Source of the DNA: an uncultured Planctomycetia bacterium
GTDB taxonomy: Bacteria; Omnitrophota; Gorgyraeia; 1-14-0-20-64-10
Reading direction: 5' to 3'
DNA length: 64,000 nt
Assembly (NCBI GenBank): GCA_964372395.1
Contig: CAYJQV010000005.1
Span: 126 to 64,125, forward strand
The position numbers and the translations under genes are program-made. Every line of letters begins with the position of its first letter. Within the stretch, counting starts at the first letter, position 1. Below are positions 22,228 to 61,088 of this stretch, in pieces. The notes under the pieces were generated by a model. The model ran no database searches. It was given only the letters and a program-made list of their open reading frames with translations, and had not been told where the DNA came from.

Positions 22228-24249
22228 TCAGAACCACCGCTTCAAGAACTCCACCGCGGGATCGGCCTGCGGGGCCTCTCCTTCGCCGGGCCGCCCTGCG
22301 ATCTCCGCGACCGCTCGGCCGACCTCTTCCGCCTGCACCAGGGCCACCTTGCCCCGGGAGTGCATTCCTTCCAGGAACCGCCGGTACTTCGACGCCCGGG
22401 AGAAAAGCCCGTCTCCCCTCGGAGGGAAAACCACCACCGGCTTCGCCGCCTCGGCCGCCTCCGAAACCATGGAGATCGAATCGCCGGAAACCACCATGGC
22501 ATCGGCCAGGCCGAGGATGCAGGGGACCGCCTCGGAGGGATCGGCGAGCCCTTCCGCCTGCGCGTGATTGACCAGGGCGAGAAGCCGGCAGCGGGGGTTG
22601 CCGGCCAAGGCCCGCTGGAGCCAGCTCTCCAGCTCAACCGGGGTCCTGCGGGAAGTGGTCACCAGGAGCTCCGCGTCCTCCTTCTCGGCAGCCGAGAGAA
22701 GCCCCTGCACCACCTGCTCCACATCCCGCGGCTCCAGCCGGACCCCGCGCGTGGGTCCGCCCAGCAGCAGCCCCCACCGGCGCCGGGAAGAGAGGTTCAG
22801 CCGTCTGCGCCAGTCTTCCAGCTGCCTCTCCTCACAGGAGCGCTCCGGGCCGAGCGCCCCGTCCATCACCAGGAGGTTTCCCCCGGTGGATGCGTGGGGT
22901 CGGTCATGCCGCGGGATCACCGCCAGGTCAAAACGGCGCCGGGAGGGAATCCGAGGGTCTGTCACATGAATCGGCCGGGCCCGGATCGCCCAGGAGAAGA
23001 GCAGATTCACCGCCGCGGTCGAACCGCCGCAGGAGATGCAGAAATCAGCGAACGCCCCGCCCAGCTCCCGCGCCGTCTCCGGCGTCAGGGCCCAGCGCAA
23101 CAGGCGTTCCCCCCCGCGGAATTTCCGGGGCACAACGGAAGCGACCGCCGCCAGAAGGTTTCTCCGCAGGGGCGACCGGAAGGCCACCTCCACCGTTTTC
23201 AGCGAAACGAGCGAGCGATTGCCGGCTCCCATCCGGTGATCGCTCGACATCCGCTGGCCCCAAGCCGCCTCGATCCGCTGCGCCAAACCCCTGGACTGAT
23301 TCAGGTGGCCCGCTTTTCCGTCGCTGAGGATCAGGATCCGGCGCTCCGGCGTCGATTTCCAGCGGCGGTGGAGCCAGAGCCACTGCTCCGGGTGCCTGCG
23401 GACGAAGCGCTCCAGCACCGCCAGATAGGCCGCCACCCCTGCATGGATCCGCTCATCCATCGTCCCCTCTTCCGGGATCGCCAGCGGCTCCTCCACCACC
23501 AGGAGATGGGACGGCCCTCGCTGGCGGACCATGAAAACCGGCAGGATCGGTGCTCCCGTCGACAGGGACAGGCCGATGGGGCCCGGCGCTGTCGAGGCGG
23601 TTCGGCCGAGGAAGGGGCAGAGCACCCCATGCGAACCGCCGTCCTGGTCGGCCAGGATCCCGATGATGCCGCCCTTTTGAAGGCCCTGGACGAGCTGCCG
23701 GACCGCGAAGCCCTTGGTCACGACCTGACACCCCTTCGATTCCCGGTAACGGGTGAGCAGCCGATTCAGCCGAGGCCACCCCTGTTCGCGGGCAAGCACC
23801 TGCGTGGGATAACCGTGCAGGGCCCCGGTGATGCTGATGAGCTCCCAGTTCCCGAAGTGGCCGGTGAGGAAGATGACCCCCTTGCCCTGCGCCAGGGCCG
23901 CCTCCAGTCTCTCCCGGCAGCCGGGGGCGACCTTGACCCAGCGATCCACATAGGCCCGGTCGATCCGCGGGATCGCGGCAATCTCCATCAAGGTAACCCC
24001 GAGGTTCTCGAACAGCACCCGGACGATCCGGTGCAGTTCCTCCGGCCGGCGGCTGGATCCGAATGCCGCGCGCAAGTTTGCCAGCGCCACCACCCGCCGC
24101 GAGGGGAACAGGCGATAGAAGAGGCGTCCGGCCGCCGCCCCGGCAGCCGCATTCCAGTGAGGAGGCAGCCGCTGGGCGAGGGCGCTAACGCCCCTGGCCA
24201 GCCAGTACAGAACGGATTCGGTGTAGAAGCTCGTCTTCATCGGGTTCAA
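22228..24249 (-). CDS. Fusion of lipid A secondary acyltransferase (LpxL/HtrB family) with an ELM1-like (DUF1022) domain
   Basis: 673 aa; the N-terminal roughly 300 aa have the LpxL-type HFGNWE motif (FLTGHFGNWELIS) and LADQD; the C-terminal roughly 350 aa (RRILILSDGKAGHLNQSRGLAQ...) resemble ELM1-family proteins commonly found beside waaA. Confidence 0.6.
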   Translation of the reverse strand: MNPMKTSFYTESVLYWLARGVSALAQRLPPHWNAAAGAAAGRLFYRLFPSRRVVALANLRAAFGSSRRPEELHRIVRVLFENLGVTLMEIAAIPRIDRAYVDRWVKVAPGCRERLEAALAQGKGVIFLTGHFGNWELISITGALHGYPTQVLAREQGWPRLNRLLTRYRESKGCQVVTKGFAVRQLVQGLQKGGIIGILADQDGGSHGVLCPFLGRTASTAPGPIGLSLSTGAPILPVFMVRQRGPSHLLVVEEPLAIPEEGTMDERIHAGVAAYLAVLERFVRRHPEQWLWLHRRWKSTPERRILILSDGKAGHLNQSRGLAQRIEAAWGQRMSSDHRMGAGNRSLVSLKTVEVAFRSPLRRNLLAAVASVVPRKFRGGERLLRWALTPETARELGGAFADFCISCGGSTAAVNLLFSWAIRARPIHVTDPRIPSRRRFDLAVIPRHDRPHASTGGNLLVMDGALGPERSCEERQLEDWRRRLNLSSRRRWGLLLGGPTRGVRLEPRDVEQVVQGLLSAAEKEDAELLVTTSRRTPVELESWLQRALAGNPRCRLLALVNHAQAEGLADPSEAVPCILGLADAMVVSGDSISMVSEAAEAAKPVVVFPPRGDGLFSRASKYRRFLEGMHSRGKVALVQAEEVGRAVAEIAGRPGEGEAPQADPAVEFLKRWF

Positions 24250-26533: not shown

Positions 26534-27406
26534 CTATGCCCTCGGGTGCGCCGAGTCGTACACCCGCTTGAGCCGCTCCGTGGTCACGTGCGTGTAAACC
26601 TGAGTGGTGGTGAGGGAGCTGTGCCCCAGAAGCTCCTGAACCGCTCGCAGGTCCGCTCCCCGGTCGAGCAGGTGTGTGGCGAAGGAATGCCGCAGCGCGT
26701 GCGGGGAAACCTTCAGCGCGGCTCCCGCCTGGGCGAGGTAGCGGTTGAGGATCCGCCTCACCGATCGGTCCGTGAGCCCGCCGCGCCGGAAGTTCTGAAA
26801 GAGCGGCCGATCCGGCAGATCGTGGCGCGGTTCCAGGGTTTTCAGATAGCGGCGGATCGCCTGCACGCTGTAGGAGCCCACCGGAACCAGGCGCTCCTTC
26901 CGGCCCTTGCCGACCACCCGCAAGCTCCCGCCGATCAGGTCCACATCGTGGATCTTCAGGCCCACCAGCTCGCTCACCCGCAGGCCGGTCGAGTAAAGGG
27001 TCTCCAGAATGGCCCTGTCCCGGCAGGCAGAGAAATCCTCCCCCTGGGGGGCTTCCACCAGCCGCGCGGCCTGCTCGACGCTGAGAAACGCCGGGAGGTG
27101 CCGGTCCTGCTTGGGCCGGACCAGCCCCAGCGCCGGGTTGGATGCCAGATGCCCCTCCCGGTGAAGGAACCGGAAGAAGGACCGGACGGCGGCAATCCGC
27201 CTGGCCACCGTCGCCTTGGAGAGCCCGCGGCTGCGCTCCTCCGCGGCGAACTGGCGCAGCGCCAGGAGGTCCACCTCCTCCCAGGGCCGCTCCCCCAGCG
27301 CCCGCCTGAGGAGGGAAAGGTCCTTGGCGTAGTTGCGCAGGGTATGAGCGGAGGCGTTCCGCTCGATCTTGAGAAAATCCAGGAATTTCCCGATGGCACG
27401 ATCCAC
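26534..27406 (-). CDS. xerC: Tyrosine recombinase XerC/XerD
   Basis: 290 aa; RNASAHTLRNY core-binding domain and catalytic HALRHSFATHLL...LLGHSSLTTTQVYTHV. Confidence 0.85.
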   Translation of the reverse strand: MDRAIGKFLDFLKIERNASAHTLRNYAKDLSLLRRALGERPWEEVDLLALRQFAAEERSRGLSKATVARRIAAVRSFFRFLHREGHLASNPALGLVRPKQDRHLPAFLSVEQAARLVEAPQGEDFSACRDRAILETLYSTGLRVSELVGLKIHDVDLIGGSLRVVGKGRKERLVPVGSYSVQAIRRYLKTLEPRHDLPDRPLFQNFRRGGLTDRSVRRILNRYLAQAGAALKVSPHALRHSFATHLLDRGADLRAVQELLGHSSLTTTQVYTHVTTERLKRVYDSAHPRA

Positions 27407-30338: not shown

Positions 30339-31265
30339 TCATCGCGCCCGGCTGAATCCGCGGCCGGCCACCTGCCGGACCGCCCCCTTGAGCTCCAGGC
30401 CGGTCAGCACCGCCAGGAGCTGGGTCGGCGGCAGGGTGGTCGTGCGGGCGATCTCCTCCAGATTCGCGGCGGACCCCACCGGCACCGCCTCAAACACCCG
30501 CCTCTCCTCCTTGGAAAAGGTGGGGTCAGACCCCGTAGGGTCAGACCCCGTAGGGTCAGACCCCACCGGGTTGCGGCGTACCTGGTACCGGAGTTGAGGG
30601 GCGAGCTCTTCCAGAACATCCGCGACGCTCTCCACGAGGCGGGCTCCGTCTCTGATCAGGGCGTGCGTGCCCCTGCTTCTTTCCGAGGAGACCGGGCCGG
30701 GCACCGCGAACACCTCGCGGCCCTGCTCCAGGGCGTGGCGGGCCGTGATCAGCGCCCCGCTCTTCAAGGGGGCCTCCACCACGATGACGCCCAGGCTGAT
30801 GCCGGCGATCACCCGGTTGCGCTGGGGGAAATGCCAGGGCCGCGGCTCTGCCTCCATGGGAAACTCGGAGAGGAGACAGCCGTTTCCCGCGATCCGCTGC
30901 GCGAGCTTGCGGTGCTGGGGCGGGTAAAGATGGGCGAGCCCATGACCGACCACCGCAACGGTCCGGCCCCCGGCCTCCAGCGCCCCCTCGTGGCCGGCTG
31001 CGTCAATCCCCTCCGCCAGGCCGGAGACCACCGTGATCCCGCACCCGGCCAGATCCATCGCCAGCCGCCGGGCGGTCTCCAGGCCGTACGGGCTGGCTGA
31101 GCGGGTTCCCACGATGGCCACGGCGGCCGCATCCTCCGGAAGCAGCGTCCCCTTGACGTACAGGATCGCCGGGGGATCATGGATCTTCCGCAGCAGATCC
31201 GGGTAATCCGGATCCTTCAGGGTCAGCTCCCTCACCTCCGCAGAGAAGGCCTTCGGCCTATCCAT
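30339..31265 (-). CDS. dprA: DNA processing protein A (Smf)
   Basis: About 308 aa from the internal Met; Rossmann-like AIVGTRSASPYGLETARRLAMDLAGCGITVVSGLAEGIDAAGH and a C-terminal winged-helix region; contains an in-frame (GSDPT)3 insertion from the repeat at 30532..30574. Confidence 0.85.
   Translation of the reverse strand: MDRPKAFSAEVRELTLKDPDYPDLLRKIHDPPAILYVKGTLLPEDAAAVAIVGTRSASPYGLETARRLAMDLAGCGITVVSGLAEGIDAAGHEGALEAGGRTVAVVGHGLAHLYPPQHRKLAQRIAGNGCLLSEFPMEAEPRPWHFPQRNRVIAGISLGVIVVEAPLKSGALITARHALEQGREVFAVPGPVSSERSRGTHALIRDGARLVESVADVLEELAPQLRYQVRRNPVGSDPTGSDPTGSDPTFSKEERRVFEAVPVGSAANLEEIARTTTLPPTQLLAVLTGLELKGAVRQVAGRGFSRAR
30532..30574. repeat. Family-1 repeat: GGGGTCAGACCCC followed by two GTAGGGTCAGACCCC units, inside dprA
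   Basis: Direct repeats read from the sequence; flanked by an 11-bp direct repeat GACCCCACCGG (30482-30492 and 30569-30579). Confidence 0.85.
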
Positions 31266-31767
31266 TTCCGGTCCTTTCCATGATCTCCTGCACAATCTCC
31301 TCCACGCTCCGATCGGTCGTGTCCACGGTGAAGTCGGCCTTCGCGTAGAAAGGGGCCCGCAGCTGAAGCAGCTCCTCGATCCGCCGGCGGGGGTCTCCGC
31401 CGGCCAGCATCGGCCGCGATGCGGCGGTCAGCGCGGTCCGCTTGAGGATCACATCGGGGCTGGCCGTCAGGCAAACCACCGCCCCCGCGGATTTGAGCGC
31501 GCGGACATTCTCTTCGTCCGTCATGATCCCGCCTCCGGTGGCGATCACGTGCCGGCGCAGGGCGGCGGCCTTCCGGGCCGCCTCGGCCTCCATTCGGCGG
31601 AAGGCCGCTTCCCCATCCTCCGCAAAGATCCGCGGGATCGGCTTGCCGCACTCCTTCTCGATCTGGCGGTCCAGATCGAGGAACGGCCGCTTCAGGCGCT
31701 GCGCCAGGAGCCGGCCCACCACCGACTTCCCTGTGCCCATGAAACCGACGAGGATGATGCTGCTCAA
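31258..31767 (-). CDS. aroK: Shikimate kinase
   Basis: 169 aa; P-loop [18 protein letters not shown] and the shikimate-kinase LID region. Confidence 0.85.
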
Positions 31768-33708: not shown

Positions 33709-34596
33709 CTAACCCCTTTTGAGGTTCTCCTCCAGCGCTTGTTTCATGACCGGAAGCACCTTCGCCGCCGGCGCACCGGTCCAGATCTCAAACGAGGCCG
33801 CCCCCTGGCCTGCCAGCATCTCCTCGCCGGTCACCACCGCACAGCCGGCCTGCCGAGCCGCCCGGATGAGCTGCGTCTCGCGCGGCTCGTAGACAATGTC
33901 GTACACGAGCATGCCGTGGTGAAGGCGCGGGAGGATCCCCTCAGGCACCTCCCCTTCCCCCTTCATCCCCATCGGGGTGGCATTCACGAGCAGGTGGCTC
34001 TCCTCCATGGGCAGCCGGTCGCTGTCAGAGCTGGCCGACGCAAAGGTCTCCGATCCGCGAAGCCGGTTGAGCCGCCGGGCCAGCTCCTCTGCCCGACCCG
34101 CCCCCGCCGGACGATTCCAGACGGTGAGCGCATGCACCTTGCTCTTCAGCGCAAGCGCCGTCGCAATCGCCTTGGCGGACCCGCCCGACCCCAGGAGGAT
34201 CACCCTCCAGCCGGACAGGGTGAGCCGCCGGGGCGGCTCCGTGAGGGGCGTTAAAAAACCCTCCCCGTCGGTGCTGGTGCCGACCGGCACACCCTCCTGC
34301 ATCGCCACCGTGTTGACCGCATCCAGCCCCGTCTCGAGAAGGAACGGATCCAGCCGCGCCGCCTCGCCGCGCGACTTCAACCATCTCCAGACCGCGCTCT
34401 TGTGCGGCATGGTCACATTGAATCCATCGAGCCGGGCCCCGTCGGACCTCAGCCAGCCCTCCAGCTTGTCCGGCGGGACCGGGTACTCCCGGTACTCCCC
34501 CTTCAGCCCAGCGGCCTCCAACGCCGCCCGGTGCATCCCCGGGGAAAGGGAGTAACCCAGCGGCCATCCGATGATCCCCAGCTTGTAGAATCTCAT
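33709..34596 (-). CDS. aroE: Shikimate dehydrogenase
   Basis: About 296 aa from the internal Met (MRFYKLGIIGWPLGYSLSPGMHRAALEAAGL...); SxS substrate motif, NVTMPHK and the Rossmann GSGGSAKA motif. Confidence 0.8.
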   Translation of the reverse strand: MRFYKLGIIGWPLGYSLSPGMHRAALEAAGLKGEYREYPVPPDKLEGWLRSDGARLDGFNVTMPHKSAVWRWLKSRGEAARLDPFLLETGLDAVNTVAMQEGVPVGTSTDGEGFLTPLTEPPRRLTLSGWRVILLGSGGSAKAIATALALKSKVHALTVWNRPAGAGRAEELARRLNRLRGSETFASASSDSDRLPMEESHLLVNATPMGMKGEGEVPEGILPRLHHGMLVYDIVYEPRETQLIRAARQAGCAVVTGEEMLAGQGAASFEIWTGAPAAKVLPVMKQALEENLKRG

Positions 34597-34662
34597 AGGG
34601 GACGCTCCATAAAGGGACACACCTCCTCGCTGCGGACGCCGCAGCCATCCACCCCACCAGAC

Positions 34663-34706
34663 TGTCCCAAAGTGGAGCGTCCCCAATTCACAAAGTGGAG
34701 CGTCCC
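34663..34706. repeat. Tandem direct repeat, 2 x 22 bp (AAAGTGGAGCGTCCCCAATTCA)
   Basis: Two perfect adjacent copies in the leuA-aroE intergenic spacer; an inverted partner GGACGCTCCA lies at 34601-34610. Confidence 0.8.
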
Positions 34707-34710
34707 CAAT

Positions 34711-36249
34711 TCAAGGGTTCGGGTGCGCCCGCCGCCTTTCCTTCCGGGCGTGCAGGTGCCGGTTGATCGCCGCCAGGTACGCCCTGGCCGAGGCCTCCAG
34801 GATGTCGGTGGCCGCCGACCGGCCGTGCTCGACCCTCCCGTTGGCGGACAGCTTCACCGCCACCTCCCCCAGCGCATCCTTCCCGGAGGTGACCGATTGA
34901 ATCCCGTAATCCTCCAGCCTCCCCCGGAAACGGGTCAGGCGGTCAATGGCGTTGTAGATCGAGTCCACGGGGCCGTCCCCGCTGGCCGCCCCCTCGAGCC
35001 GCTTCCCATCGGAGCTCTTCAGCCGGACCGTGGCCGTTGGGATGAGGCCGGTTCCGCTGGAGACGTGGAGGTACTCGAGGGCATAGCGCTGCGGCACCTC
35101 GGAGATCTCATCCTCCACCAGCGCCGAGAGATCGTCATCGAAGACCTCCTTCTTCTTGTCCGCCAGCGCCTTGAACCGCGCGAACGACTGCTCCAGCTGG
35201 CGCGGGGTCAGCGAGAAGCCGAGCTGCCTGAGCCGCTCGACAAAGGCATGCCGGCCCGAGTGCTTGCCCAGCACCAGCCTCGACTCGCCGTAGCCGACCT
35301 CCTCCGGCCGCATGATCTCGTACGTCTTGCGGTGCGCCAGAACCCCGTGCTGGTGGATCCCCGATTCGTGGGCGAAGGCGTTGCCGCCCACGATCGCCTT
35401 GTTCGGCTGGACCAGGAACCCGGTCAGCTTCGAGACCAGGCGGCTCGCCCGGTAGATCTCCGGGGTGTTGATGCGGGTCTCCACCTTGAAGAGATCCTTC
35501 CGGACCTTGAGCGCCATCACCACCTCTTCGAGACTGGCGTTCCCTGCCCGCTCCCCGATGCCGTTCACCGTGCACTCCACCTGCCGGGCGCCGTTCTTCA
35601 CCGCCGCCAGGGAGTTCGCCGTGGAGAGCCCCAGGTCGTTGTGGCAGTGGACGGAGATCACCGCGCGGCCCACGTTCGGGACCTTCTCGCGGATCGAGCG
35701 GATGAGCTCCCCGAAATGGCTGGGGATCGCCCACCCCACCGTGTCGGGGATGTTGACCGTGGTGGCGCCCACCTCGATCACCGCCTCCAGCACCCGGTAC
35801 AGGAAGTCCGGCCGGGTCCGGGCCGCGTCCTCCGGCGAGAACTCCACGTCGTCGGTGTACCGGCGCGCCAGCTTCACCCCCGCCACCGCCAGCCGGAGGA
35901 TCTCATCCTCCGCCTTCCTCAGCTTGTACTTCATGTGGATCTCGGAGGTGGCCACGAAGGTGTGGATCCGCTTCCTCCGCGCGGATTTCAGCGCCCTCCC
36001 CGCCGCCTCGATGTCCTTCGGGACCGCGCGGGCGAGGCTGGCGATGACCGGCCGCCGGACCTCGCGCGCGATGAGACCCACCGCCTGGAAATCGCCGGGC
36101 GAGGAGACGGCGAATCCGGCCTCGATCACGTCCACCCCCAGCCGGTCCAGCTGCCGGGCGATCTCCAGCTTCTGCTGCGGGTTGAGCGACGCGCCCGGGC
36201 ACTGCTCCCCGTCCCTCAGCGTCGTATCGAAGATGATCACCCGATCCAT
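34711..36249 (-). CDS. leuA: 2-isopropylmalate synthase (or (R)-citramalate synthase)
   Basis: 512 aa; [39 protein letters not shown] and a C-terminal LeuA-dimer regulatory domain. Confidence 0.85.
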
Positions 36250-39794: not shown

Positions 39795-39821
39795 GGGGTC
39801 TGACCCCGCCGGGGTCAGACC
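39795..39821. repeat. Family-1 palindromic element pair GGGGTCTGACCCCG-C-CGGGGTCAGACC at the ilvD stop codon
   Basis: The ilvD TGA stop (39815-39817 rc) lies inside the right arm of the element. Confidence 0.8.
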
Positions 39822-41479
39822 TCAAGCACCGCTCCCTCGCTGGCCGAGCCAACGAGTCTCGCGTAGCGCGCCATGACGCCGGTCTTGTATTTCGGCGCGG
39901 GCGCCTTCCACTTCTTCAGGCGGATCTTGAGCTCCGCCGCAGTGAGATCCACATTCAACCGGCGCTTCTTCACGTCCACGGTGATGAGGTCCCCATTCTT
40001 CACCGCGGCGATCGGGCCGCCCACCGCGGCCTCCGGCGCCACATGCCCTGCCATCAGCCCGTGCGTCGCCCCGGAGAACCGCCCGTCGGTCAGCAGGGCC
40101 ACGGAGCTGCCCAGGCCCTCCCCCACCATCGCGCCGGTGACCGCGAGCATCTCCCGCATGCCGGGGCCTCCCTTCGGCCCCTCGTAGCGGATCACCACCA
40201 CGTCCCCCTTCCTGATCCTGCGGGCCTTGACCGCGGCGAAGGCATCCTCTTCACAGTCGAACACCCGCGCCGGGCCCCGGAAGAGCAGCTTCTGTTCTCC
40301 CGCCACCTTCAGCACGCATCCCTCAGGAGCCAGGTTCCCCCGCAGGATCGCCAGCCCCCCGCTCTTCTTCAAAGGGCTCGCCAGCGGGCAGACCACCTTC
40401 TGGCCTGAGGTCTCCCTGGCCAGGGCCGCCTCCTCGCCGATCGTGCGGCCGGTGACGGTGAGAGCCTTCTTCCTCAAGAGCCCCGCATCCAGCAAGCGCT
40501 TGGCCACCAGGCGGATCCCGCCCGCTCGGTGCATGTCCGGCGCGGTGAAACGCCCCCACGGCTTCATGTCCGCCCAGATCGGAGTGCGTCGGCTCACCCT
40601 GTCAAAATCACCGATCGAAAGCGTCACCCCCGCTTCCCTCGCCAGCGCCAGAAGGTGCAGCACCCCGTTCGTCGATCCGCCGGTGGCAACAATGCTAGCG
40701 ATCGCATTCTCAAAGGCCCCCCGGGTCAGGATCCGGCGCGGGGTCGGTCCCTTCCGGACCAGCTCCATCGCCAGCCGGCCCGCCTCGTAGGCGGCCCGGT
40801 CCTTCTCCGGGTCCATCGCCGGGATGGAGTTTGTCCCCATCGGAGAAATCCCCGAGAGCTCCATCGCTGTGGCCATGGTGTTGGCGGTAAACTGCCCGCC
40901 GCAGGCCCCCGGCCCCGGACAGGCGCTCTTCTCCAGCTCCAGAAGCTGCTTCTGGCTCATCCGTCCCGCCGCGCAGGCCCCCACCCCCTCGAACACGTCC
41001 TGGATCGTTACATCCCGTCCCTCGAACCGGCCCGGGGCGATCGAGCCGCCGTAGATCATCAGCCCCGGCAGATTCACCCGGGCCAGCGCCATCACGGTCC
41101 CCGGAATCGTCTTGTCGCAGCCGGAGATCGCCACCAGTCCGTCGAACAGGTGCCCTCGCGCCACGAGCTCAATCGAGTCGGCCACCACCTCGCGGCTCAC
41201 CAGCGAGCACTTCATCCCCTCCGTGCCCATCGAGATCCCGTCCGAGACTGAAACGGTGTTGAACTCGATCGGCACCCCGCCCGCGTCGCGGACCCCCCGC
41301 TTCACCTGCTCCGAGAGCCGCCGCAGATGGAAATTGCACGGCATCACCTCGGTCCAGGTGTTGGCCACCCCGATCAGCGGCTTGTCGAAGTCCGCATCGG
41401 ACAACCCAACCGCCCGAAGCATGGCCCGCGCGGGGGCGCGGCTCAGCCCCTTCTTCAGCGCGTCGCTGCGGAGCTTCAT
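39815..41479 (-). CDS. ilvD: Dihydroxy-acid dehydratase
   Basis: 554 aa; CDKTIPG (Fe-S cysteine), [11 protein letters not shown] and the [10 protein letters not shown] signatures of IlvD/EDD. Confidence 0.95.
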
Positions 41480-41911: not shown

Positions 41912-44900
41912 TTACGCCGCGATCAGCAGGCCCAGCTCCTTATCAAGCTGCTGCCGGAGCTGAGTGCCGGTATCGGGAAGAGGGACACCGAGGAATTTCA
42001 GCAGATCCACCACAAACCGGACCGGATCGGCCAGGGAAAGATCGCGGGCCGGCTCTACGGAAATGCCGGCATGCCGCGCAAAGGGCTGGAAGTCCGAAAA
42101 CTCCGCATCGGAACCCAAGAAGGTGGCCGAAGCAATCTCCCTTCCGTACAGCCCCGCGGCCCAGCCGGCCCTGGCCTCCAACAGCTCCCCGCGGGCCATT
42201 CCCTGAATCTGCGGATCAAAGAAGATGAGCGGATGCAGCTCCCCCAGCGCCCCTTCCACCAGAGCCGGGAGGAACGGCATCGCGTCCCGGTAGATGGTGG
42301 GCCCCACCACCACCGCCTGCTTCCCCACCCGGCTGGCTGGCTGGCTCACCAACCGATGCAGGGTTGCCCTCACCCTCTCCTCAGCCGCCCGGACCTCCTC
42401 CATACCGGCGGTGTCCCCGACGGCGGCGTTGTAGATCTCCATCGACTGATAGGCCATCAGGAGGAGCTTCGCCAGGTTGGTGGTGACCGCAAAGACCGGC
42501 TCCCCCGACTCCGGGTCGGTCCCCTCATATCGGAAAGGCCAGTGGAGGTCATGGAACGGCTCTCCCACCACCTGCTCGACCTCGTCCGCCAATTCAGGAA
42601 TCCCGACTGATTTCCGCCGCGCCCAACCCAGCAGGACCTCTGGGGTATGGCGGCGACCCTCCTCCGCCGCCTTTCGCTGGATGACGGATGCGACAAAGAG
42701 CGCCGTCCTGCCGTAGGCATTGGTGTCCACAACGAGCAGCGGCGCCCCATCGGGAAGATTGGCGCTTGCGAACTGCCGGTACAGATGCGAGGCCTGCACC
42801 GCCACCGTGGGATCCTCCCTGAGAAGCCGTTCCACCCCTTCGTCAAACCGGCCTCTGAACTCCCGGTAGATCTGATCCCGCCGGGCCGGATCCCCCGCCG
42901 CCTCCTCCGGAAGGATCCCTCTCTGCCTGAGCAGATCCACGACGTCCGTCCATATTGCGGACGTTTTCTTGAGGGTGTGGTCCAGCACCGGGTCTCTTGC
43001 CCGGACCGATACGGACTCCCTCGGCGCACCCGGCTGGTAGATGAGATGCGCCTGGAAGGGCTCGCCCCGCACCGCCGCCTGGTACGCTCCGAACTCGTAC
43101 ACCGTCAGGGAGTCCCTCGCCAGAAGGATCGGCACACTGTGACGGCCCCGGATCGCATCCCAGAGGGCCGGAAGGTGGCGGACGTGGCTGCGGATGAACT
43201 CCACATCGGGAATCACCCGCCGGTTGCTCTCCAGAACCGCGGGGATTGCCTGCATCGCCTGCATTTCTCCGCGCCCCCGGAAACGTCCCGGCAGGAACTC
43301 ATACGAAGCGATGAAGCCCTCTGACAGCTCACGAAGGATCCGGCGGATCTCGGACTCGGTGAAGGCCCGCGGCCGGCCCTGCTCATCGCGCGGGAAGGCC
43401 TCCGGCGGCAGCAGCCAGAAGGGGCGGCGGACCTCCTCCATGGAGAGCATGCTTCGATAGATGAAAGACGTCATGCTGCGGATGAAGGCACTGACTGCAT
43501 CTCGTGCCGGGCTTCGAAGCACCAAACGCCGGCTGCTCTGGTAGAAATCCTCGATGCTGCCGGGCTCCCACCAGCCGCTCAGCGCCGGCTGCAGGATAAG
43601 CTCCGGCCTGTGGAAAGGGACCTTCCCGGGATTCCATCGAAATCCGGCCGATCGGGGTCCGCGGATCCGCAGCGGCTCCGGCCCCTGAAACCTGCGGCCC
43701 AGGCGCTGGATGACGCGCCGGATCGCGATATCCTGCAGATGCTCGGCCGCCGTCTCCTGCCTCGCGTAATCGGTCCCGCTGTCCCTGTTGCTGAGGGCGG
43801 TATCGTAGACATCCGAGGCCGACCGGATCAGCTCCTCCAGCTCCTCGGGGTGATCCCTGAAATAGACGTAGTACGCCTCCTCGTACAGGCCAAGCGCCTC
43901 CTCCTTGGAAAGGGGCCGGCCTTCCACCAGGTGAACCAGCTCCCATCCGTCGGGCCCGAACCATTCATTCAGCAAGCGTTCGATCGCCGGCCGGTTCCAA
44001 CCGAATGGCCCGGGACGGAGCGCCCCACCCTCCCTCCAGTAGTGGAGGAGCACCTCCGCCTTGGTTCGACCGAGTATGGCGCCCGGGTCGCGCCGAATCG
44101 GCCCGGCGGAACGGACCTGGAAGCGAAGCGGCCGGGATCTCCCCCGCGCCATCGTTTCCACGGCATCCACATGCCCGCGCAGATGCTGAAGCCGCCCGCC
44201 CGGCCCCCGCAGGCGGACAGGGGACTGGACCGCCCCCTTGCTGCCCAGGGGCGGGATATTCAGACGGAGCGTCCTGGGATCGAGAAGCCAGACCAGCTCC
44301 CGCCAGGCATCCCCATCCGGCAGGGGGACCGAAAGGAGAAGCTCCAGCTTCCGGTCGCTGAGAAACAGCCAGGTTCCGCGAGGCAGGAAGAGTGCAGGAA
44401 GGAGCTGCCAATCCTGATTCTCCGCCGTCCGGTACCAGACGCCGTTTTCGTCCAGGCGGAGTTCCGTCGCCTGCACGCTCCGGGCACCGGCCCACAGCTC
44501 CTCCAAGACCCATCCCTGCAGGGGAGCGTAAGGATTTTCCTTGCCAGCCTTCAGAGGAACCAGCTCGAATCTCGGTTCGCCATGAAACGTTTCCAGCTCG
44601 AGCTGCAGGCCCCAGCCGATCTGGACCGCCCCCTTGCCGGCGGCAACCTCCTCCAGGACCACCGGCCTCTGCTGCAGAAGCCTTGGAATTTCGCGCACAC
44701 CGTCTCGCCAAAGCGCCGGGTCCCTCAGCACGTCTGCCGCGATCTCGACGTCGGGAAGACCGGCCGCTTCAAAGATCCGATGGAGCTCGGCCGCCGAAGA
44801 TTCCTCCATCCCGGCGGCCGGGTTTCCTTCGGGCCTGAGCGCCTCCTCCAGGCCAGTTCTGCTTTTGCCCTCCGAGGCTGGCTGCGGGCGAAGCGTGTCC

Positions 44901-45025
44901 GACGCAAGAACAAGAGCCGGACAGAGGAATGGCGTGACTGGGCAGAGGAGCTGCGTCAGCAGAAAACCAACGAGCGTCAGCCGGGCGATCCGGTGGTCGC
45001 GGCTGACTCTGCGGAACTTGGTCAT
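41912..45025 (-). CDS. Large secreted/membrane-anchored hypothetical protein (about 1,037 aa), no recognisable domains
   Basis: A long ORF with uniform coding character. Taking the internal Met gives a signal-peptide-like N-terminus (MTKFRRVSRDHRIARLTLVGFLLTQLLCPVTPFLCPALVLASD) with an AGGA 4 nt upstream; alternative ATGs lie at 45052 and 45076. An AT-rich promoter-like region follows at 45077..45151. Confidence 0.5.
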   Translation of the reverse strand: MTKFRRVSRDHRIARLTLVGFLLTQLLCPVTPFLCPALVLASDTLRPQPASEGKSRTGLEEALRPEGNPAAGMEESSAAELHRIFEAAGLPDVEIAADVLRDPALWRDGVREIPRLLQQRPVVLEEVAAGKGAVQIGWGLQLELETFHGEPRFELVPLKAGKENPYAPLQGWVLEELWAGARSVQATELRLDENGVWYRTAENQDWQLLPALFLPRGTWLFLSDRKLELLLSVPLPDGDAWRELVWLLDPRTLRLNIPPLGSKGAVQSPVRLRGPGGRLQHLRGHVDAVETMARGRSRPLRFQVRSAGPIRRDPGAILGRTKAEVLLHYWREGGALRPGPFGWNRPAIERLLNEWFGPDGWELVHLVEGRPLSKEEALGLYEEAYYVYFRDHPEELEELIRSASDVYDTALSNRDSGTDYARQETAAEHLQDIAIRRVIQRLGRRFQGPEPLRIRGPRSAGFRWNPGKVPFHRPELILQPALSGWWEPGSIEDFYQSSRRLVLRSPARDAVSAFIRSMTSFIYRSMLSMEEVRRPFWLLPPEAFPRDEQGRPRAFTESEIRRILRELSEGFIASYEFLPGRFRGRGEMQAMQAIPAVLESNRRVIPDVEFIRSHVRHLPALWDAIRGRHSVPILLARDSLTVYEFGAYQAAVRGEPFQAHLIYQPGAPRESVSVRARDPVLDHTLKKTSAIWTDVVDLLRQRGILPEEAAGDPARRDQIYREFRGRFDEGVERLLREDPTVAVQASHLYRQFASANLPDGAPLLVVDTNAYGRTALFVASVIQRKAAEEGRRHTPEVLLGWARRKSVGIPELADEVEQVVGEPFHDLHWPFRYEGTDPESGEPVFAVTTNLAKLLLMAYQSMEIYNAAVGDTAGMEEVRAAEERVRATLHRLVSQPASRVGKQAVVVGPTIYRDAMPFLPALVEGALGELHPLIFFDPQIQGMARGELLEARAGWAAGLYGREIASATFLGSDAEFSDFQPFARHAGISVEPARDLSLADPVRFVVDLLKFLGVPLPDTGTQLRQQLDKELGLLIAA

Positions 45026-45151
45026 CCTATCGTCGGGCTCCGGACAATCCATGGAGGAAAAGCCGATGGTGCGCATCGGGTCCCGTATTAAAAGTTACTC
45101 GACAGCGGGCAGACTTTCAAGGAGAAATATCTTCCTATTTATTTCTGCTAA

Positions 45152-51346: not shown

Positions 51347-52401
51347 AGAAAATTCACCAGCGATTTCAAGGCGGAGGCCAGGGCCAGCATGCCGGCGTTG
51401 TGCAGGACATGGATCGACACGGGCGCCAGCAGCGACCCGGTGCGCTCATAGACCCAGCCGAAGAGAAGCCCCAGGCCCAGGATCGGCACAAAGGCCACGG
51501 GATCGCCGTGGAGCAGCGCGAACAAGGCCGCGGACAGTCCCAGGGCGGGCCGGATTCCCCACCGCACCCGCAGCCATCCATACAGCAGGCCCCGGAAGAA
51601 GACCTCCTCCGCAGCGGGTCCCACGAGCGTGATCATGACGATGAGCCAGGTGAGCACCGAACCCCGGCTCTCCGAGAAGTAGATGGTGAAGGCCGGCTGG
51701 GGACTCGGCTCCCGGCCGAGAAGCTGCAGCGCCCCCATCACCGCCAGGAGGAGCGCAACCAGAACCGGAAGGAACGCCAGATACGATGTGAGGCTCAACC
51801 CGATCCGGGAGAAGGCCTGTCCGCGCGCGCCGGGCGCTGCGGCCGGGGCCGAGGCCTTCGCCCGCCTCCAGATCCATGCCGCTCCCGCCAGCACCGCTGC
51901 ATCGAGGAGGAGCGTGTTCGCCAGGGCCAGCAGATTCCGATCCAGCCAGGCGGGATGGAATGCCCGGATGAGGAGCCGTTCGACGAGGAGCGCCAGCTGC
52001 GCCAGCCCCAGAACCGCCACCACGAGCCGGAAGATCTCCCGGCCTCCCCATCCCGGGACCGGCGGCTCGCCCAGCCGCGGCTGGACCGGCCGGCCCCTCA
52101 CCAGCCGAACCACGGATCGGATGAAGAACAGGACCGAAGCGGCCAGCAGAAGGAGCAACCCCTGGGCGATCCAGCCAACGCGGCGCATGAGTTCCGGATG
52201 CTCCCGGAGCCGGTCGCCGAGCTTCTGGCGGTCTACCGAGATCGCCCGCTGGATCCTCTGCTGGACGGCCTCCTCCTGCTCGGCCCAAGTCCGCTCAGCC
52301 GCCGGCGGGACCTGGGCAGGCCGCTGCTGAACCCGGAGCGCGGTCTGGCCCCCCCATGCCAGGGCGAGGAGCAGCAGGAGTAAAGCGTCCAGCCGGTTCA
52401 T
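51343..52401 (-). CDS. CPBP-family intramembrane metalloprotease (CAAX protease / Abi-like)
   Basis: 352 aa; a polytopic C-terminal domain with EEVFFRGLL, FALLHG and HVLHNAG motifs of the CPBP family. Confidence 0.65.
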   Translation of the reverse strand: MNRLDALLLLLLALAWGGQTALRVQQRPAQVPPAAERTWAEQEEAVQQRIQRAISVDRQKLGDRLREHPELMRRVGWIAQGLLLLLAASVLFFIRSVVRLVRGRPVQPRLGEPPVPGWGGREIFRLVVAVLGLAQLALLVERLLIRAFHPAWLDRNLLALANTLLLDAAVLAGAAWIWRRAKASAPAAAPGARGQAFSRIGLSLTSYLAFLPVLVALLLAVMGALQLLGREPSPQPAFTIYFSESRGSVLTWLIVMITLVGPAAEEVFFRGLLYGWLRVRWGIRPALGLSAALFALLHGDPVAFVPILGLGLLFGWVYERTGSLLAPVSIHVLHNAGMLALASALKSLVNFL

Positions 52402-53831
52402 CAGCCGACGTCGTCGTAGGCCCGGACGCGGTAGGCGACCTTGAGCTCATCCTCCGCGACGATCCGGCAGGCCTCCAGGTCGATCCCCGGCATGGCGACG
52501 ACGGTGGCCGTCACCTTCATGCCGGCATCCCGGCATTCCGTGATGAACCGCTTGATCGAGTCGTAGGTCGAAAGCCCGAACGCCGGCCGGCAGAGCTCGA
52601 GGTACTGCTCCGCGGTGGGCGTGTTGAGACTCACGGAAACCTCGTCCACCACACCCCGCAGCTCCTGCGCGATGGGGCGCTTGTGGATGAGATTCCCGTG
52701 GCCGTTGGTGTTGAGCCGGATCCACCGGGCCCCCTTCTCCTTCAGGCGGCGCCCGATCTCCAGAAGCTCCTGCAACCGGATCACCGGCTCCCCGTAGCCG
52801 CAGAAAACAATCTCCTCGTGCCGGGTGGGGTCTCCCGCCGCCTGAAGAACCTCCGAGACCTTCGGGTCCCGCGGCATCCGGAGGTGATGCCCCTTCACGA
52901 AGGGCGAGGGCCCCTCTCCCTTCCAGAACTGCTCATCACTGAGGGAACAGAAAACGCAGCGGTCGGTGCAGGCGTTGGTGAGGTTCACGTAGAGGGACCG
53001 GCGGATGGGATACGCGATCTTCCCGCGGATCGGAGCCGGGCCGATTCCAAAGAGGTGATACGCGTTGACGGTGGTCACCCGCGCCACATCCTCCGGGGCA
53101 AGCTCCTTCAGCTCCGCCCATGCATGGATGAGCTCCGTCAGGGAGGCCGGCTCGTTGCGCCGGCCCCGCTGGGACTGGGGGGCCATGAACGGCGCGTCGG
53201 TCTCCAGGACCACCCGCTCCAGGGGGATCTCGCGGGCCACCTCGCGCAGCGATTCCGCGTTCGGGAAAGTCAGGTTTCCGGCGAACGAGAGGTCCAGCCC
53301 CATCCCCAGCGCTTCCTCCGCAACCGCCCGGCCGCCGGAGAAGCAGTGCAGCAGCCCGCGGATCGGCGGCTTCAGGCACTCCCTTAAGATCGCGAAGAGA
53401 TCGGCGTAGGCGTGGCCGGCGCCCTGCTGCGCCGGCTCCCGGCAGTGAAGGATGACCGGCTTGTTCAGCTCATGGGCAAGCCGGAGCTGCCTGCGCAGCG
53501 CCTCCTGCTGGACCGGCCGGGGGGAGAGATCCCGGTAGTAATCCAGGCCGATCTCTCCGATGGCCACCACCTTCGGCCGGGTCGCCAGCCCGCCCAGCTC
53601 CTCCCAGGCCTCTTCCGTCAGCTCTCCGGCGTGGTGCGGGTGCACGCCGACGGCGGCGAACACCTCCGGATGGCGGCCCGCCAGCTCCACCACCCGCCGG
53701 TTCGAGGAGGAATCGGTGGCCGGATCCAGCAGGGCGGTCAGGCCGGCGGCACGCGCCCGGGCCAGCACCTCCTCGCGATCCGGATCGAACTCGATCCGGT
53801 GAAGGTGACAGTGGGTGTCTACGAACTGCAT
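52401..53831 (-). CDS. TatD-family hydrolase fused to a TatD-associated radical SAM-like domain
   Basis: About 476 aa from the internal Met (MQFVDTHCHLHRIEFD..., the TatD metal-binding HxH, ...GEIGLDYY..., ...LETDAPFMAP) followed by a C-terminal domain with CTDRCVFC (a CxxxCxxC cluster motif); the 192-aa Gly/Arg-rich upstream extension is rejected. Confidence 0.7.
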   Translation of the reverse strand: MQFVDTHCHLHRIEFDPDREEVLARARAAGLTALLDPATDSSSNRRVVELAGRHPEVFAAVGVHPHHAGELTEEAWEELGGLATRPKVVAIGEIGLDYYRDLSPRPVQQEALRRQLRLAHELNKPVILHCREPAQQGAGHAYADLFAILRECLKPPIRGLLHCFSGGRAVAEEALGMGLDLSFAGNLTFPNAESLREVAREIPLERVVLETDAPFMAPQSQRGRRNEPASLTELIHAWAELKELAPEDVARVTTVNAYHLFGIGPAPIRGKIAYPIRRSLYVNLTNACTDRCVFCSLSDEQFWKGEGPSPFVKGHHLRMPRDPKVSEVLQAAGDPTRHEEIVFCGYGEPVIRLQELLEIGRRLKEKGARWIRLNTNGHGNLIHKRPIAQELRGVVDEVSVSLNTPTAEQYLELCRPAFGLSTYDSIKRFITECRDAGMKVTATVVAMPGIDLEACRIVAEDELKVAYRVRAYDDVG

Positions 53832-54975
53832 CGGCTCAAACGGACCCTTTCCACCACCGGCGGAATCCTCTCCAGGGCCTCCTCGATCTCCTGCTCGGTC
53901 GTTCCCCAGCCCAGCGAGAACCGGATGGAGCTCTCCACCCGCTCCCGCGGCAGGCGCATCGCCAAGAGAACATGCGACGGCTCGGTCGAACCGGAGGAAC
54001 AGGCCGAGCCGGTGGAGACCGAGATCCCGGCCAGATCCAGGGCGGCCAGCAGCGCCTCCCCCTCGCACCCCAGGAAGCTCACGTTGAGCGTGCCCGGAAG
54101 CCTCTCCTCCGGATGGCCGTTGAGCTCCACCTCCCCCAGCCTCTCCCTGAGCCCCTGCTCCAGCCGGTCCCGCAACGTGCGGATCCGGGATGGGGCGCCG
54201 CCCCGCAGCTCCTCCAGGCTCTTCTCGACCGCCGCCCCGAGGGCCACGATCCCCGGCACCGACTCTGTTCCCGCTCGCAGCCCTCCCTCCTGCGGGCCGC
54301 CCCGCAGCATCGCCGAGGGCTCCAGCCCCGAGCGCAGATAGAGGGCGCCGGTCCCCTGAAGGCCGCCCAGCTTGTGGCCTGAGATCGAGACCAGATCCGC
54401 GCCGCACCGGCGCACGTCGAGGGGAACCTTCCCGAAGGACTGGACCGCGTCGGTGTGGAAGAGAATTCCGTGGGCGCGCGCGATCCGGCCGATCTCCTCG
54501 ATGGGCTGGATTGTCCCCACCTCGTTGTTCCCATGCATGACGGAGAGGAGGATCGTCTCAGGGGTGATCGCCTGCTCCAGCGCCTCCAGATCGATCCGGC
54601 CCTCGGCATCCACCGGGACGAGATCCACGTGAAATCGATCCTCCTCCAGCGCGCGCGCCGCCCCCAGAACCGCGGGATGCTCCACGCTGGAGAGGATCAC
54701 GTGGCTCCCCCTGGAACGCAGGGCGTGTGCCGTCCCGTACACGGCCAGGTTGTCTGCCTCCGTCCCGCCGGAGGTGAAGAGCAGCCGCCCCTTCGGATCT
54801 GCGAGCGACTGCAGGATCTGCGAACGGACCCTCTCGACGGCGGAGCGGGCCCGGCGTCCGTGGGCATGCAGGCTGGAGGCGTTCCCGGGTCCGGCGGCCA
54901 GGAGGGCCTGAACCGCGGCTTGAACCTCAGGACGGACCGGCGAGGTAGCGTTGTAGTCGAGATACAGGGCCTTGA
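53819..54975 (-). CDS. Cysteine desulfurase (NifS/IscS family); start unresolved (apparent +1 frameshift after the ATG at 54977..54979)
   Basis: PLP-lysine ISGHKLGG; the N-terminal IKALYLDYNATSPVRPEV...FTSGGTEADNL continues in frame upstream of the ORF-track start but reaches a stop without an in-frame ATG, while an ATG sits one nucleotide out of frame (ATGcATCAAG). Confidence 0.75.
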
Positions 54976-59645: not shown

Positions 59646-61088
59646 TCATCTCCGAGGGCGGATGACGGTCCCGCCCGATGTATCCTCCAGGATGAATCCC
59701 TGCTCCTGGATCTCCCTGCGGTACCGGTCCGCCTCCTCGAATCGCCTCTCGCGGCGGGCGAGGTCTCTCTTCCCCGCCAGCTCCTGGATCTCCGCGGGAA
59801 TCTCCGCGCGCCCGAGGCGCAGGCCGAGGATCCCCGCGAGCTCCCGCAAGGCCCTGGCCGCTCCGACGAGCCGGCCCTTCGCGGAGGCATCCGCAAACCA
59901 CCCGCGGGCCTGCTGCGCCAGCATGAACAGGGCGCTCAGCGCCTCAGAGGTGTTCAGATCGTCCTCCAGAGCCGCCGTGAATCGAGCGCGGGATTCCCGG
60001 ATTTCGCCGCTCTCTTCCTCCTGCACCTTTCCGACCCTCTGCTCCACCTGCACCAGAAAATCATCCAGCGTCTCCAGCGCCCGGGCCGACTCTCCGAGGC
60101 GATCCCGGGTGAAGTCCATCGGGGAACGGTAATGAGCCCCAAGGAAGAAGAGCCGGAGGACATCGGCAGGGTGCCTCTCCAGCGCCTGCGGGATGGTGAT
60201 CACGTTGCCGGCCGACTTGGCCATCTTCTGGCCCGCCACCGTGAGCAGGCCATTGTGGAGCCAGACGCGCGCGAACGGCTTGCCGGCCCCGACCGCCTGC
60301 GCCAGCTCATTCTCATGATGCGGGAAGAGGAGGTCCATCCCGCCGCCGTGGATGTCAAAGGCATCTCCGAGGAGGGACGTGGCCATGGTGGAGCATTCGA
60401 TGTGCCAGCCGGGACGCCCGGCCCCCCAGGGGCTGGTCCACTGCGGCTCCTCCGGCTTGGCGTTCTTCCAGAGCGCGAAATCCAGCGGATCCCTCTTCCC
60501 CTCCCCCGTCTCCCCCCGCGCTCCCTCCAGCATCTCGTCCAGCTTCCGGTGAGAGAGGGGGCCGTACGGGTGGACCGCGCTGAACGCCCGCACGGAGAAG
60601 TAGACCCCGTCGCTTCCCCGGTACGCCATTCCCCGCCGGACGAGCTCCCCGATGAAGGCGATCATCTGCGGGATGAACTCCGTGGCCCTCGGCTCCTCCT
60701 GCGGGGGCTGGAGCCCCAGCCGGGTGAAGTCCGCCTGGAAACGCTCCGTGAAATGCTCCGCGACGGCCCGAGTCCGCCCCTTCAAATCCAAAGGGGTCTG
60801 ACCCCTTTGGGCGGCATCTCTCAGCTCGCCTGAGTCAGGGGTCAGACCCCTGGCCCGTTCGATGATCTTGTCGTCCAGATCGGTGATGTTGCGGACGTAG
60901 GTGACCTGATGGCCGGACGCCTCCAGGAAGCGCCGGAGGACATCGAACACCACCGCGCCCCGCGCGTGCCCGATGTGGCAGTCGTCGTAGACGGTCACCC
61001 CGCAGACGTAGATCGTCACCCGCGGGGGATGGAGCGGCTGGAACAGCTCCTTCTTTCCGGAGAGGGTGTTGAACAAGCGGAGGGACAT
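59646..61088 (-). CDS. cysS: Cysteinyl-tRNA synthetase
   Basis: 480 aa; HIGH (CHIGHARG), zinc-binding Cys, KMSKS (KMAKS); contains an in-frame insertion of about 29 aa (RGLTPDSGELRDAAQRGQTPLDLKGRTRA) from the repeat element at 60791..60854. Confidence 0.95.
   Translation of the reverse strand: MSLRLFNTLSGKKELFQPLHPPRVTIYVCGVTVYDDCHIGHARGAVVFDVLRRFLEASGHQVTYVRNITDLDDKIIERARGLTPDSGELRDAAQRGQTPLDLKGRTRAVAEHFTERFQADFTRLGLQPPQEEPRATEFIPQMIAFIGELVRRGMAYRGSDGVYFSVRAFSAVHPYGPLSHRKLDEMLEGARGETGEGKRDPLDFALWKNAKPEEPQWTSPWGAGRPGWHIECSTMATSLLGDAFDIHGGGMDLLFPHHENELAQAVGAGKPFARVWLHNGLLTVAGQKMAKSAGNVITIPQALERHPADVLRLFFLGAHYRSPMDFTRDRLGESARALETLDDFLVQVEQRVGKVQEEESGEIRESRARFTAALEDDLNTSEALSALFMLAQQARGWFADASAKGRLVGAARALRELAGILGLRLGRAEIPAEIQELAGKRDLARRERRFEEADRYRREIQEQGFILEDTSGGTVIRPRR
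60791..60854. repeat. Family-1 composite element inside cysS: AAAGGGGTCTGACCCCTTT ... CTCAG-ctcgc-CTGAG ... CAGGGGTCAGACCCCTG
   Basis: Two oppositely oriented GGGGTC(T/A)GACCCC cores (60794-60806, 60839-60851) flanking a small internal hairpin. Confidence 0.85.

Follow-up and report, generated by a model that had tools for sequence, protein, structure and literature searches.

How can a gene for an essential aminoacyl-tRNA synthetase come to contain, in frame, a pair of opposed DNA palindromes? The question is raised by cysS, the gene for cysteinyl-tRNA synthetase (CysS), in a 64,000-nucleotide (nt) stretch of contig CAYJQV010000005.1 (assembly GCA_964372395.1) from an uncultured bacterium of the Omnitrophota lineage; this whole stretch is called the window in the following. 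The gene carries two copies of the palindrome GGGGTC(A/T)GACCCC, which lie 45 nt apart with a 30-nt spacer between them. We consider it likely, with a probability of roughly 0.7, that a palindromic pair resembling the repetitive extragenic palindromic (REP) sequences was fixed in frame within cysS, in a surface loop that tolerates changes in length.

The palindromic insert in cysS

The open reading frame (ORF) of cysS (Table 1) is intact and carries the insertion in frame, the latter as the first-pass annotation of this DNA had stated. It matches the Pfam families tRNA-synt_1e (E = 2.8e-114) and DALR_2, and the signature motifs of a class I synthetase are found at residues 38-41 (HIGH) and 288-292 (KMAKS). 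In alignments with 37-49 homologues, H38, G40, H41, K288, M289, K291, S292, C29, C232, H257 and E261 stand in invariant columns, and the last four are presumably the zinc ligands, as in the E. coli enzyme. The catalytic domain, the HIGH/KMSKS motifs, the zinc-ligand columns and the DALR domain of a class I CysS are thus all present in the window protein.

On the plus strand, GGGGTCTGACCCC occupies 60793-60805 and GGGGTCAGACCCC, which is its reverse complement, occupies 60838-60850, and the 15-nt arms at 60792-60806 and 60837-60851 are 100% complementary. In the coding frame the two units are read as (A)GG GGT CTG ACC CC(T), giving RGLTP, and (A)GG GGT CAG ACC CC(T), giving RGQTP, where the bracketed bases fall outside the 13-nt core, and the region is translated as ...KIIERA RGLTPDSGELRDAAQRGQTP LDLKGRTRAVAEHF.... 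Moreover, unit 2 is embedded in a perfect 23-nt palindrome at 60788-60810 (CCAAAGGGGTC.GACCCCTTTGG), and the spacer contains a mini-hairpin formed by CTCAG (60820-60824) and CTGAG (60830-60834), so the earlier description of two opposed cores around a CTCAG/CTGAG hairpin is accurate. The further claim that the insertion derives from a composite palindromic element is supported for the palindromes, which belong to a dispersed family (see below). As a conserved feature, the central hairpin was considered and rejected, being kept in neither of the two other composites that were found, those of homologues P0003 and P0005. By folding, the mRNA over the insert is predicted to form a 15-bp stem with -44.9 kcal/mol (z = -4.9), and the insert as single-stranded DNA gives -23.3 kcal/mol (z = -4.3); the terminator scan made no call at the insert. 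There are no direct repeats flanking the cysS insert or that of gltB described below, and hence no target-site duplication at either.

Table 1. Positions of cysS, the parts of its insert and the other repeat loci in the window
Feature	Position	Strand	Basis
cysS, cysteinyl-tRNA synthetase, 480 amino acids, intact	59646-61088	minus	ORF list and Pfam
Net in-frame insert, 60 nt, residues R80-P99, RGLTPDSGELRDAAQRGQTP	60792-60851	minus	Anchor spacing and codon view
Unit 1 (first in the gene), coding-strand GGGGTCTGACCCC, (R)GLTP; extended 17-nt palindrome CAGGGGTCTGACCCCTG	60838-60850	minus	
Spacer, 30 nt, DSGELRDAAQ; predicted short helix at residues 87-94	60807-60836	minus	
Unit 2, coding-strand GGGGTCAGACCCC, (R)GQTP	60793-60805	minus	
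Doublet in gltB (10056-14663), GATase_2 domain, read GSDPAGSDP	14160-14187	minus	
Array of six 15-nt units in tandem, making up the C-terminal tail (xGQTP)x6 of a GT9 glycosyltransferase (17716-18834)	17720-17807	minus	
Three tandem units in DprA (30339-31295), (GSDPx)3, between the DNA_processg_A and winged-helix domains	30522-30564	minus	
Two units, 16 nt apart (not 15), at the ilvD/ilvB junction	39795-39823	minus	

The size of the insert was gauged by the spacing between two anchors, DxDDKI and EPxAT. This spacing is 42 amino acids (aa) in E. coli and in 52 of 52 CysS from unrelated phyla, a control set composed of the distant CysS that a scan of genome collections with generic peptide patterns returned (Gammaproteobacteria, Betaproteobacteria, Nitrospira, Actinobacteria, Pelagibacterales, Aquificales and others). 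Most of the relatives from the Omnitrophota have a spacing of 46-49 aa, and the window CysS has one of 62 aa. Because 62 aa stand against the canonical 42 aa, the net insertion is 20 aa compared with the canonical enzyme, and it is about 14 aa compared with the closest homologue, P0002 (spacing 48 aa). The length of about 29 aa given in the first-pass annotation is the number of residues between the conserved blocks and needs to be reduced accordingly; the LDLKGRTRA of the window CysS aligns with the native GDLKAKVRA of the relatives. The CysS from unrelated phyla contain no similar segment and no units, which leaves the proposed insertion standing, and not even a single unit was found in the 80 unrelated loci of the CysS control set.

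An AlphaFold2 model of CysS, made from an alignment of 50 sequences, has a predicted local distance difference test score (pLDDT) of 94.7 and a predicted template modelling score of 0.92, with block pLDDT of 92-95 across the insert. Its best match in the PDB is 1u0b_B, the E. coli enzyme bound to tRNACys (template modelling score 0.83/0.87), and it also matches the fold of 1li5. In the model, the insert follows strand 61-66 and helix 73-80 and precedes the long helix 102-123, and it is formed by a loop at 81-86 (GLTPDS), a helix at 87-94 (GELRDAAQ) and a loop at 95-101, so that two GxTP turns bracket one extra short helix. The predicted position is therefore in the loop between the helices crossing from strand 2 to strand 3, in the first half of the Rossmann fold, and not in a loop after the first Rossmann strand as had been expected before the model was made. 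The site is probably peripheral, judging by the variability of the loop length (42-65 aa) among homologues.

A dispersed family of near-perfect units

With at most one mismatch, the 13-mer occurs 15 times in the window against 0.37 times expected, a number that was reached in 0 of 100 shuffles. The 15 near-perfect copies form 5 loci, all 5 of them overlapping genes in open frames, and the genes or gene parts affected are GltB, the tail of a GT9 glycosyltransferase, the linker of DprA, the stop codon of IlvD, and CysS (Table 1). A search of the window with two mismatches gave 4 extra matches, where about 5.4 were expected (5.73 minus 0.37); there is no decaying tail, and the copies are either near-perfect or absent. 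The core measures 13 nt, or 17-23 nt where flanking bases are complementary as well. A search of the window and of eight loci rich in repeats against Rfam yielded one tRNA and no other match.

The doublet in gltB is part of a 15-aa insert, which is missing from 60 of 60 aligned homologues and is flanked by its own AAAACC/GGTTTT inverted repeat. Among the in-frame cases gltB is cleaner than cysS, to which the first-pass annotation had given the rank of clearest case. The GT9 gene whose tail is made of units ends in a TGA that shares bases with the start codon ATG of the GT9 gene following it (16781-17719), as ATGA. At the ilvD/ilvB junction one unit lies in the spacer between the two genes, and the stop codon of ilvD (39815-39817) is a TGA within the other unit (..EV, stop), which means that the repeat supplies the end of the gene. 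The variant bases of the arrays are common to neighbours, since five copies at 17720 have GACCCT and two at 30537 have AGGGTC, and the arrays have thus grown by local duplication in 15-nt steps. The features of a coding tandem repeat are found here, namely a period of 15 nt, a multiple of 3, and a copy number that varies between relatives at cysS, and as a step of 15 nt equals five codons, it leaves the reading frame unchanged. Of the 6 frames of the unit, 5 are open, reading GQTP, GLTP, GSDP (twice) and GVRP, and the sole stop lies in the T-centred frame GV-stop-P. The open frames code for hydrophilic turns bounded by Gly and Pro, and every copy in the window sits in a loop, a linker, a tail or a gene end. 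In addition, doublets of opposite orientation, with one A-centred and one T-centred unit, are present at 14160, at 39795 and in cysS, the relatives P0028 and P0009 have them too, and they are frequent among the metagenome matches described next.

Contigs from JGI metagenomes were scanned for two units 15 nt apart, and such a doublet was found in at least 120 contigs from soil, freshwater and ocean, with G+C fractions of 0.36-0.75. Among the matches listed, most doublets look intergenic and have extended inverted-repeat flanks that are specific to the lineage, and in-frame doublets were seen in genes for SMC, a PHP-GT4 protein, a phosphodiesterase, a GH3 hydrolase and a CusB-like protein. The contig with the SMC gene belongs to the Omnitrophota, and the closest SMC homologues have no insert. 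Three contigs (L172, L105 and L136) were assigned to Marinobacter by exact protein matches, so the core also exists in the Gammaproteobacteria and is common to two distant phyla. The GGGGTCWGACCCC doublets of Marinobacter form dense intergenic arrays with conserved flanks such as GAAAAAGGGGTC...GACCCCAACTTCA, and L172 has 15 units between acnD, prpC, prpB and a GntR gene of the prp operon, an arrangement that is the classical pattern of REPs and bacterial interspersed mosaic elements. In intergenic contexts, doublets followed by T-runs look like terminators. No doublets were found in viral contigs, and the plasmid collection gave one weak match only.

A single unit in another relative (L002 8786, GCA_964373805.1) is located exactly at the junction of an IspD-IspF fusion (KGK RGQTP FD M). 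IspD and IspF are encoded by separate genes in the window and in other relatives, and the unit may have created or bridged the fusion in L002.

The cysS loop among the Omnitrophota

The best homologues of the window CysS are from Candidatus Omnitrophota, and they fall into four states at this loop, where any units are read in the frame that they have in the window. There is no unit in P0002, P0004, P0026 and many others, one unit in P0010 (WGLTP) and P0036 (RGLTP), and a doublet 15 nt apart in P0028, P0012, P0023 and P0025 (RGQTP-WGLTP) as well as P0030, P0009 and P0041. A composite with a spacer, as in the window, is present in P0003 (WGQAP DLRELQEVGK RGLTP) and P0005 (RGLTP DSRELKAAAG RGLAP). 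The CysS of the Omnitrophota that bear a unit, a doublet or a composite are 60-68% identical to the window protein, and the palindromes were confirmed in the DNA of six cysS genes. The first-pass annotation had proposed to test whether relatives lack the insert; the closest one, P0002, does lack it, and other Omnitrophota carry one of the three forms, so that the insertion is neither private to this genome nor recent.

In a bootstrapped neighbour-joining tree, the window CysS pairs with the unit-less P0002 (77% identity, bootstrap 100), and P0003 pairs with the unit-less P0004 (bootstrap 72). P0005 is placed in a tight clade, with 84-87% identity to P0026 and P0029, neither of which has a unit, and to P0028, which has a doublet, and its composite-bearing protein is 87% identical to that of P0026. 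On this tree, the deep branching of which is not resolved, at least three gains or losses of units at cysS are needed.

The composite is old. Counted from the codons, the spacers of the window and of P0005 are identical at 20 of 30 nt, similar to the whole gene, and with a divergence of the spacer close to that of the gene, the insert is both old and polymorphic. The units behave differently from the spacer. In 11 units from six cysS genes there are 3 substitutions in 143 positions; the Gly codon is GGT in 11 of 11 units (log10 P about -11.6), although GGT makes up 0 of 43 of the other Gly codons in the window cysS and 5-24% in the other cysS genes, and the codon ACC or GCC is found in all 11 units. 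Next to the 13-mer the bases are variable (A, C or T before it; T, A or G after it), and in conserved blocks of these cysS genes the four-fold degenerate sites show an identity of only 47%. As the units have remained near-perfect while the spacer and the synonymous sites drifted, they are maintained as DNA, and the upkeep would be due to selection, to gene conversion from other copies or to the spreading process. For the encoded peptide, the Thr-to-Ala changes in units of P0003 and P0005 show that it is under no tight constraint.

Three further ideas on the insert were tried. The spacer does not derive from two decayed units, with which it shares 6 of 13 positions by eye. Its derivation from a tandem duplicate of the start of the native helix (ELKAAAG in P0005 against DLKAAAR/Q in the clade) is suggestive and not significant. 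That GGGGTCTGAC looks like the outer end of the inverted repeat of Tn3 was set aside as a coincidence, there being no further similarity and no 5-bp duplication.

The cysS loop is a hot spot of insertions and deletions in the Omnitrophota, where anchor spacings of 42, 46-49, 54-57 and 62-65 aa occur. P0007 has an unrelated insert with a spacing of 65 aa (RQEGLVVRRPIAAATRQEGTDPGG) at the same loop, and many distant relatives (homologues P0056-P0120) show 55-aa variants of it. Relatives with a spacing of 42 aa have LGISP or LGESP at the turn, which resembles GLTP.

Origin of the pair and its place among known repeats

If a REP-like pair was fixed in cysS, the following course of events can be assumed. 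New loci would be seeded by hairpin-dependent copying, of the type of REPs and their REP-associated tyrosine transposases (RAYTs) or of the template-switch type, which fits the missing target-site duplication; the arrays have grown by local tandem duplication in steps of 15 nt. The units might be kept intact by the seeding process or by gene conversion from other copies, and gains and losses at cysS could take place via recombination or slippage between units. The protein segment may be neutral or nearly so and be tolerated by the enzyme. Three properties account for the survival of units in genes, namely the module of five codons, the Gly/Pro turns encoded by the open frames and the location in loops, linkers and termini.

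Several observations weigh against the fixation of a REP-like pair. A Pfam search of the 39 ORFs of the window revealed no transposase or RAYT (no Y1_Tnp), only a recombinase of the XerC/D type (26534-27406). Neither a target-site duplication nor a tag of the GTAG or CGTC type was found, and in the flanks of all window copies neither GTAG/CTAC nor CGTC/GACG adjoins the units. No second copy of the composite and its spacer turned up in about 1.9 Mb of DNA examined, and BLAST places the spacer only in cysS, which implies that the composite is specific to cysS and old, and not a recently landed mobile composite. Three relatives (L204, L205 and L206) have no units in 5-17 kb besides those in cysS, which fits a conserved and possibly functional site equally well as a hot spot. 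In addition, the confident extra helix of the model could be a selected protein feature. The derivation from a mobile element proposed by the first-pass annotation is borne out in so far as the units belong to a dispersed repeat family; the mobility itself is putative, no transposase, target-site duplication or second composite having been found.

Some of these observations could mean that the palindrome is a cis-acting nucleic-acid element, either a binding site for a protein or an mRNA hairpin that slows ribosomes, affects stability or attenuates transcription, with the peptide as a by-product. The conservation of the synonymous positions of the units far beyond the rest of cysS would agree with such a role, and so would the units confined to cysS in L204, L205 and L206, the very stable hairpin and the terminator-like intergenic doublets with T-runs. 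However, the closest relative and many others do without a unit at the cysS site, the unit is also present in unrelated genes and positions, and no single structure is conserved, as there is a single unit, a doublet 15 nt apart or a composite 45 nt apart depending on the lineage; with neither an Rfam match nor a terminator-like call at the insert, we regard this role as unlikely. A native and functional, lineage-specific insertion peptide of the synthetase, with an incidental palindrome for which the canonical G-[ILV]-[ST]-P turn may have been the seed, is still harder to accept, although the loop is a hot spot of length change that includes the unrelated variant of P0007, the model has a confident short helix in the insert, and LGISP or LGESP stands at the corresponding turn of the 42-aa relatives. 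Selection on a peptide would leave unexplained why the rare GGT and the fixed ACC codons occur in every unit while the outer bases vary and why identical 13-mers are found in GltB, DprA, GT9, IlvD, SMC and intergenic arrays, and the Thr-to-Ala changes in the units of P0003 and P0005, which indicate a loosely constrained peptide, as well as the sister lineage without the insert, argue in the same direction.

Plain slippage could also have expanded a palindrome that arose by chance in cysS and is unrelated to the other loci. The arrays at 17720 and 30522 are clearly locally duplicated, and 45 nt is a multiple of the 15-nt step. Yet the exact 13-mer is found at five unlinked loci, in other genes of the Omnitrophota and in Marinobacter, the two cysS units are opposite (T and A centres), a product that simple slippage does not give, and the spacer is unlike decayed units, so we think chance expansion very improbable. 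An error of sequencing or assembly is hardly credible at all: long perfect hairpins can indeed cause assembly errors, but the identical protein is encoded on two separate NCBI contigs (54,721 and 66,161 nt), homologous composites with diverged spacers come from independent ENA and NCBI assemblies, and the reading frame is preserved.

The fixation of a REP-like pair in cysS has parallels in the literature. REPs with GTAG or CGTC tags are sometimes found wholly inside ORFs, where dimers add 20-30 aa, and the genes hosting intragenic REPs include those of tRNA synthetases; in O. terrae, a bacterium of the Planctomycetes-Verrucomicrobia-Chlamydiae group, the partners of a dimer lie 1-2 bp apart and intragenic copies are the most numerous (PMC3733652; Di Nocera et al. 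2013). In that paper, the table of REP-encoded peptides contains none of GSDP, GQTP and GLTP. Like the units described here, REPs are short stem-loop repeats with many copies, often arranged as head-to-head or tail-to-tail dimers, and they are mostly located between co-directional genes. The cysS family differs from them in having no GTAG or CGTC tag and no RAYT gene nearby in the window, and in having a perfect core of 13 nt instead of the usual 20-40 bp and a strict 15-nt module in coding arrays. With regard to placement, REPs are mostly extragenic, between co-directional or convergent genes, whereas 5 of 5 loci in the window overlap coding sequence; the units in L172 of Marinobacter and apparently most of the metagenome loci are intergenic. 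REP doublets forming hairpins (REPINs), known from REPIN-RAYT systems, also consist of two inverted units and a spacer that together form a long hairpin, and PMC3337134, PMC3116915 and the RAREFAN preprint describe them as non-autonomous, as long-lived within lineages and as causing no target-site duplication. In contrast to the cysS pair REPINs are extragenic, and no RAYT was found in the window. Furthermore, as each arm of the cysS pair is itself palindromic, only the A or T at its centre shows in which orientation it lies.

Rickettsia palindromic elements (RPEs) are found in frame in many unrelated, functional and often essential genes and were proposed to be compatible with the fold and function of the proteins (PMC10969869; PMC3733652). 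The in-frame insertion into functional genes (CysS, GltB, DprA, the GT9 tail and SMC) is shared with them. However, RPEs are about 100-150 bp long (30-50 aa; PMC10969869) and confined to Rickettsia, while the unit of the cysS family has 13-15 nt and the composite 60 nt; the unit is smaller by a factor of about ten, occurs in tandem arrays and is also intergenic in another phylum. The RPE sequence is probably unrelated. Miniature inverted-repeat transposable elements, too, are small non-coding repeats that can fuse in frame with host ORFs (PMC10969869), but they have 70-300 bp, terminal inverted repeats of 15-30 bp and target-site duplications (PMC3733652), none of which is present at cysS. Lineage-specific insertion peptides of aminoacyl-tRNA synthetases also add surface-loop residues to the catalytic domain of a canonical enzyme; the cysS insert differs from these in its traceable origin from repeat DNA and in its presence varying between close relatives. 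In a full-text search of the literature the 13-mer was not found in any paper, and the matches to an 11-mer were unrelated primers. The cysS pair is a small-scale case of the known habit of palindromic repeats of settling in protein genes.

Other features of the window were also recorded. At 34668-34713 there is a perfect direct tandem duplication of 23 nt (CAAAGTGGAGCGTCCCCAATTCA x2), which spans the spacer between a gene of the shikimate dehydrogenase type (33709-34686) and leuA (34711-36249) and overlaps both gene ends. Multi-domain fusions are encoded at 20082-22220 (GT4 and GT9), 22228-24249 (lipid A acyltransferase and an ELM1-like domain) and 52401-54407 (TatD and radical SAM), and relative L204 also has a called gene with matches to TatD_DNase and Radical_SAM. 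Two large ORFs with a coding-like composition, at 41912-45076 and 3216-4337 (minus strand; 1054 and 373 aa), have no Pfam match at E <= 1e-5.

Palindromic repeats in essential genes show how conserved proteins can gain residues from selfish or structural DNA without lethality, and the present case extends this to a candidate phylum without a cultured model and to a very small unit, the 15-nt module of which keeps the frame automatically. For annotation, peptides such as xGQTP, xGLTP and xGSDP mark segments derived from repeats, which inflate loops, supply stop codons (IlvD) and possibly give rise to fusions (IspD-IspF in L002). The palindromes are intact while nearby codons drift, which suggests an active process of maintenance that could be studied in the cultivable Marinobacter. 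One might go further and suppose that GGGGTCWGACCCC is the recognition element of a hairpin- or palindrome-specific enzyme common to the Omnitrophota and Marinobacter, its 15-nt unit, five codons long, open in five of six frames and always coding for a Gly/Pro turn, being a coding-adapted mobile module, quantised in pentapeptides, that could colonise essential genes and be actively kept in them over long evolutionary times, rather than a decaying fossil; this is a speculative idea, and we are inclined to doubt it. What is worth following is the maintenance at the DNA level within an essential gene and the core that is common to the Omnitrophota and Marinobacter.

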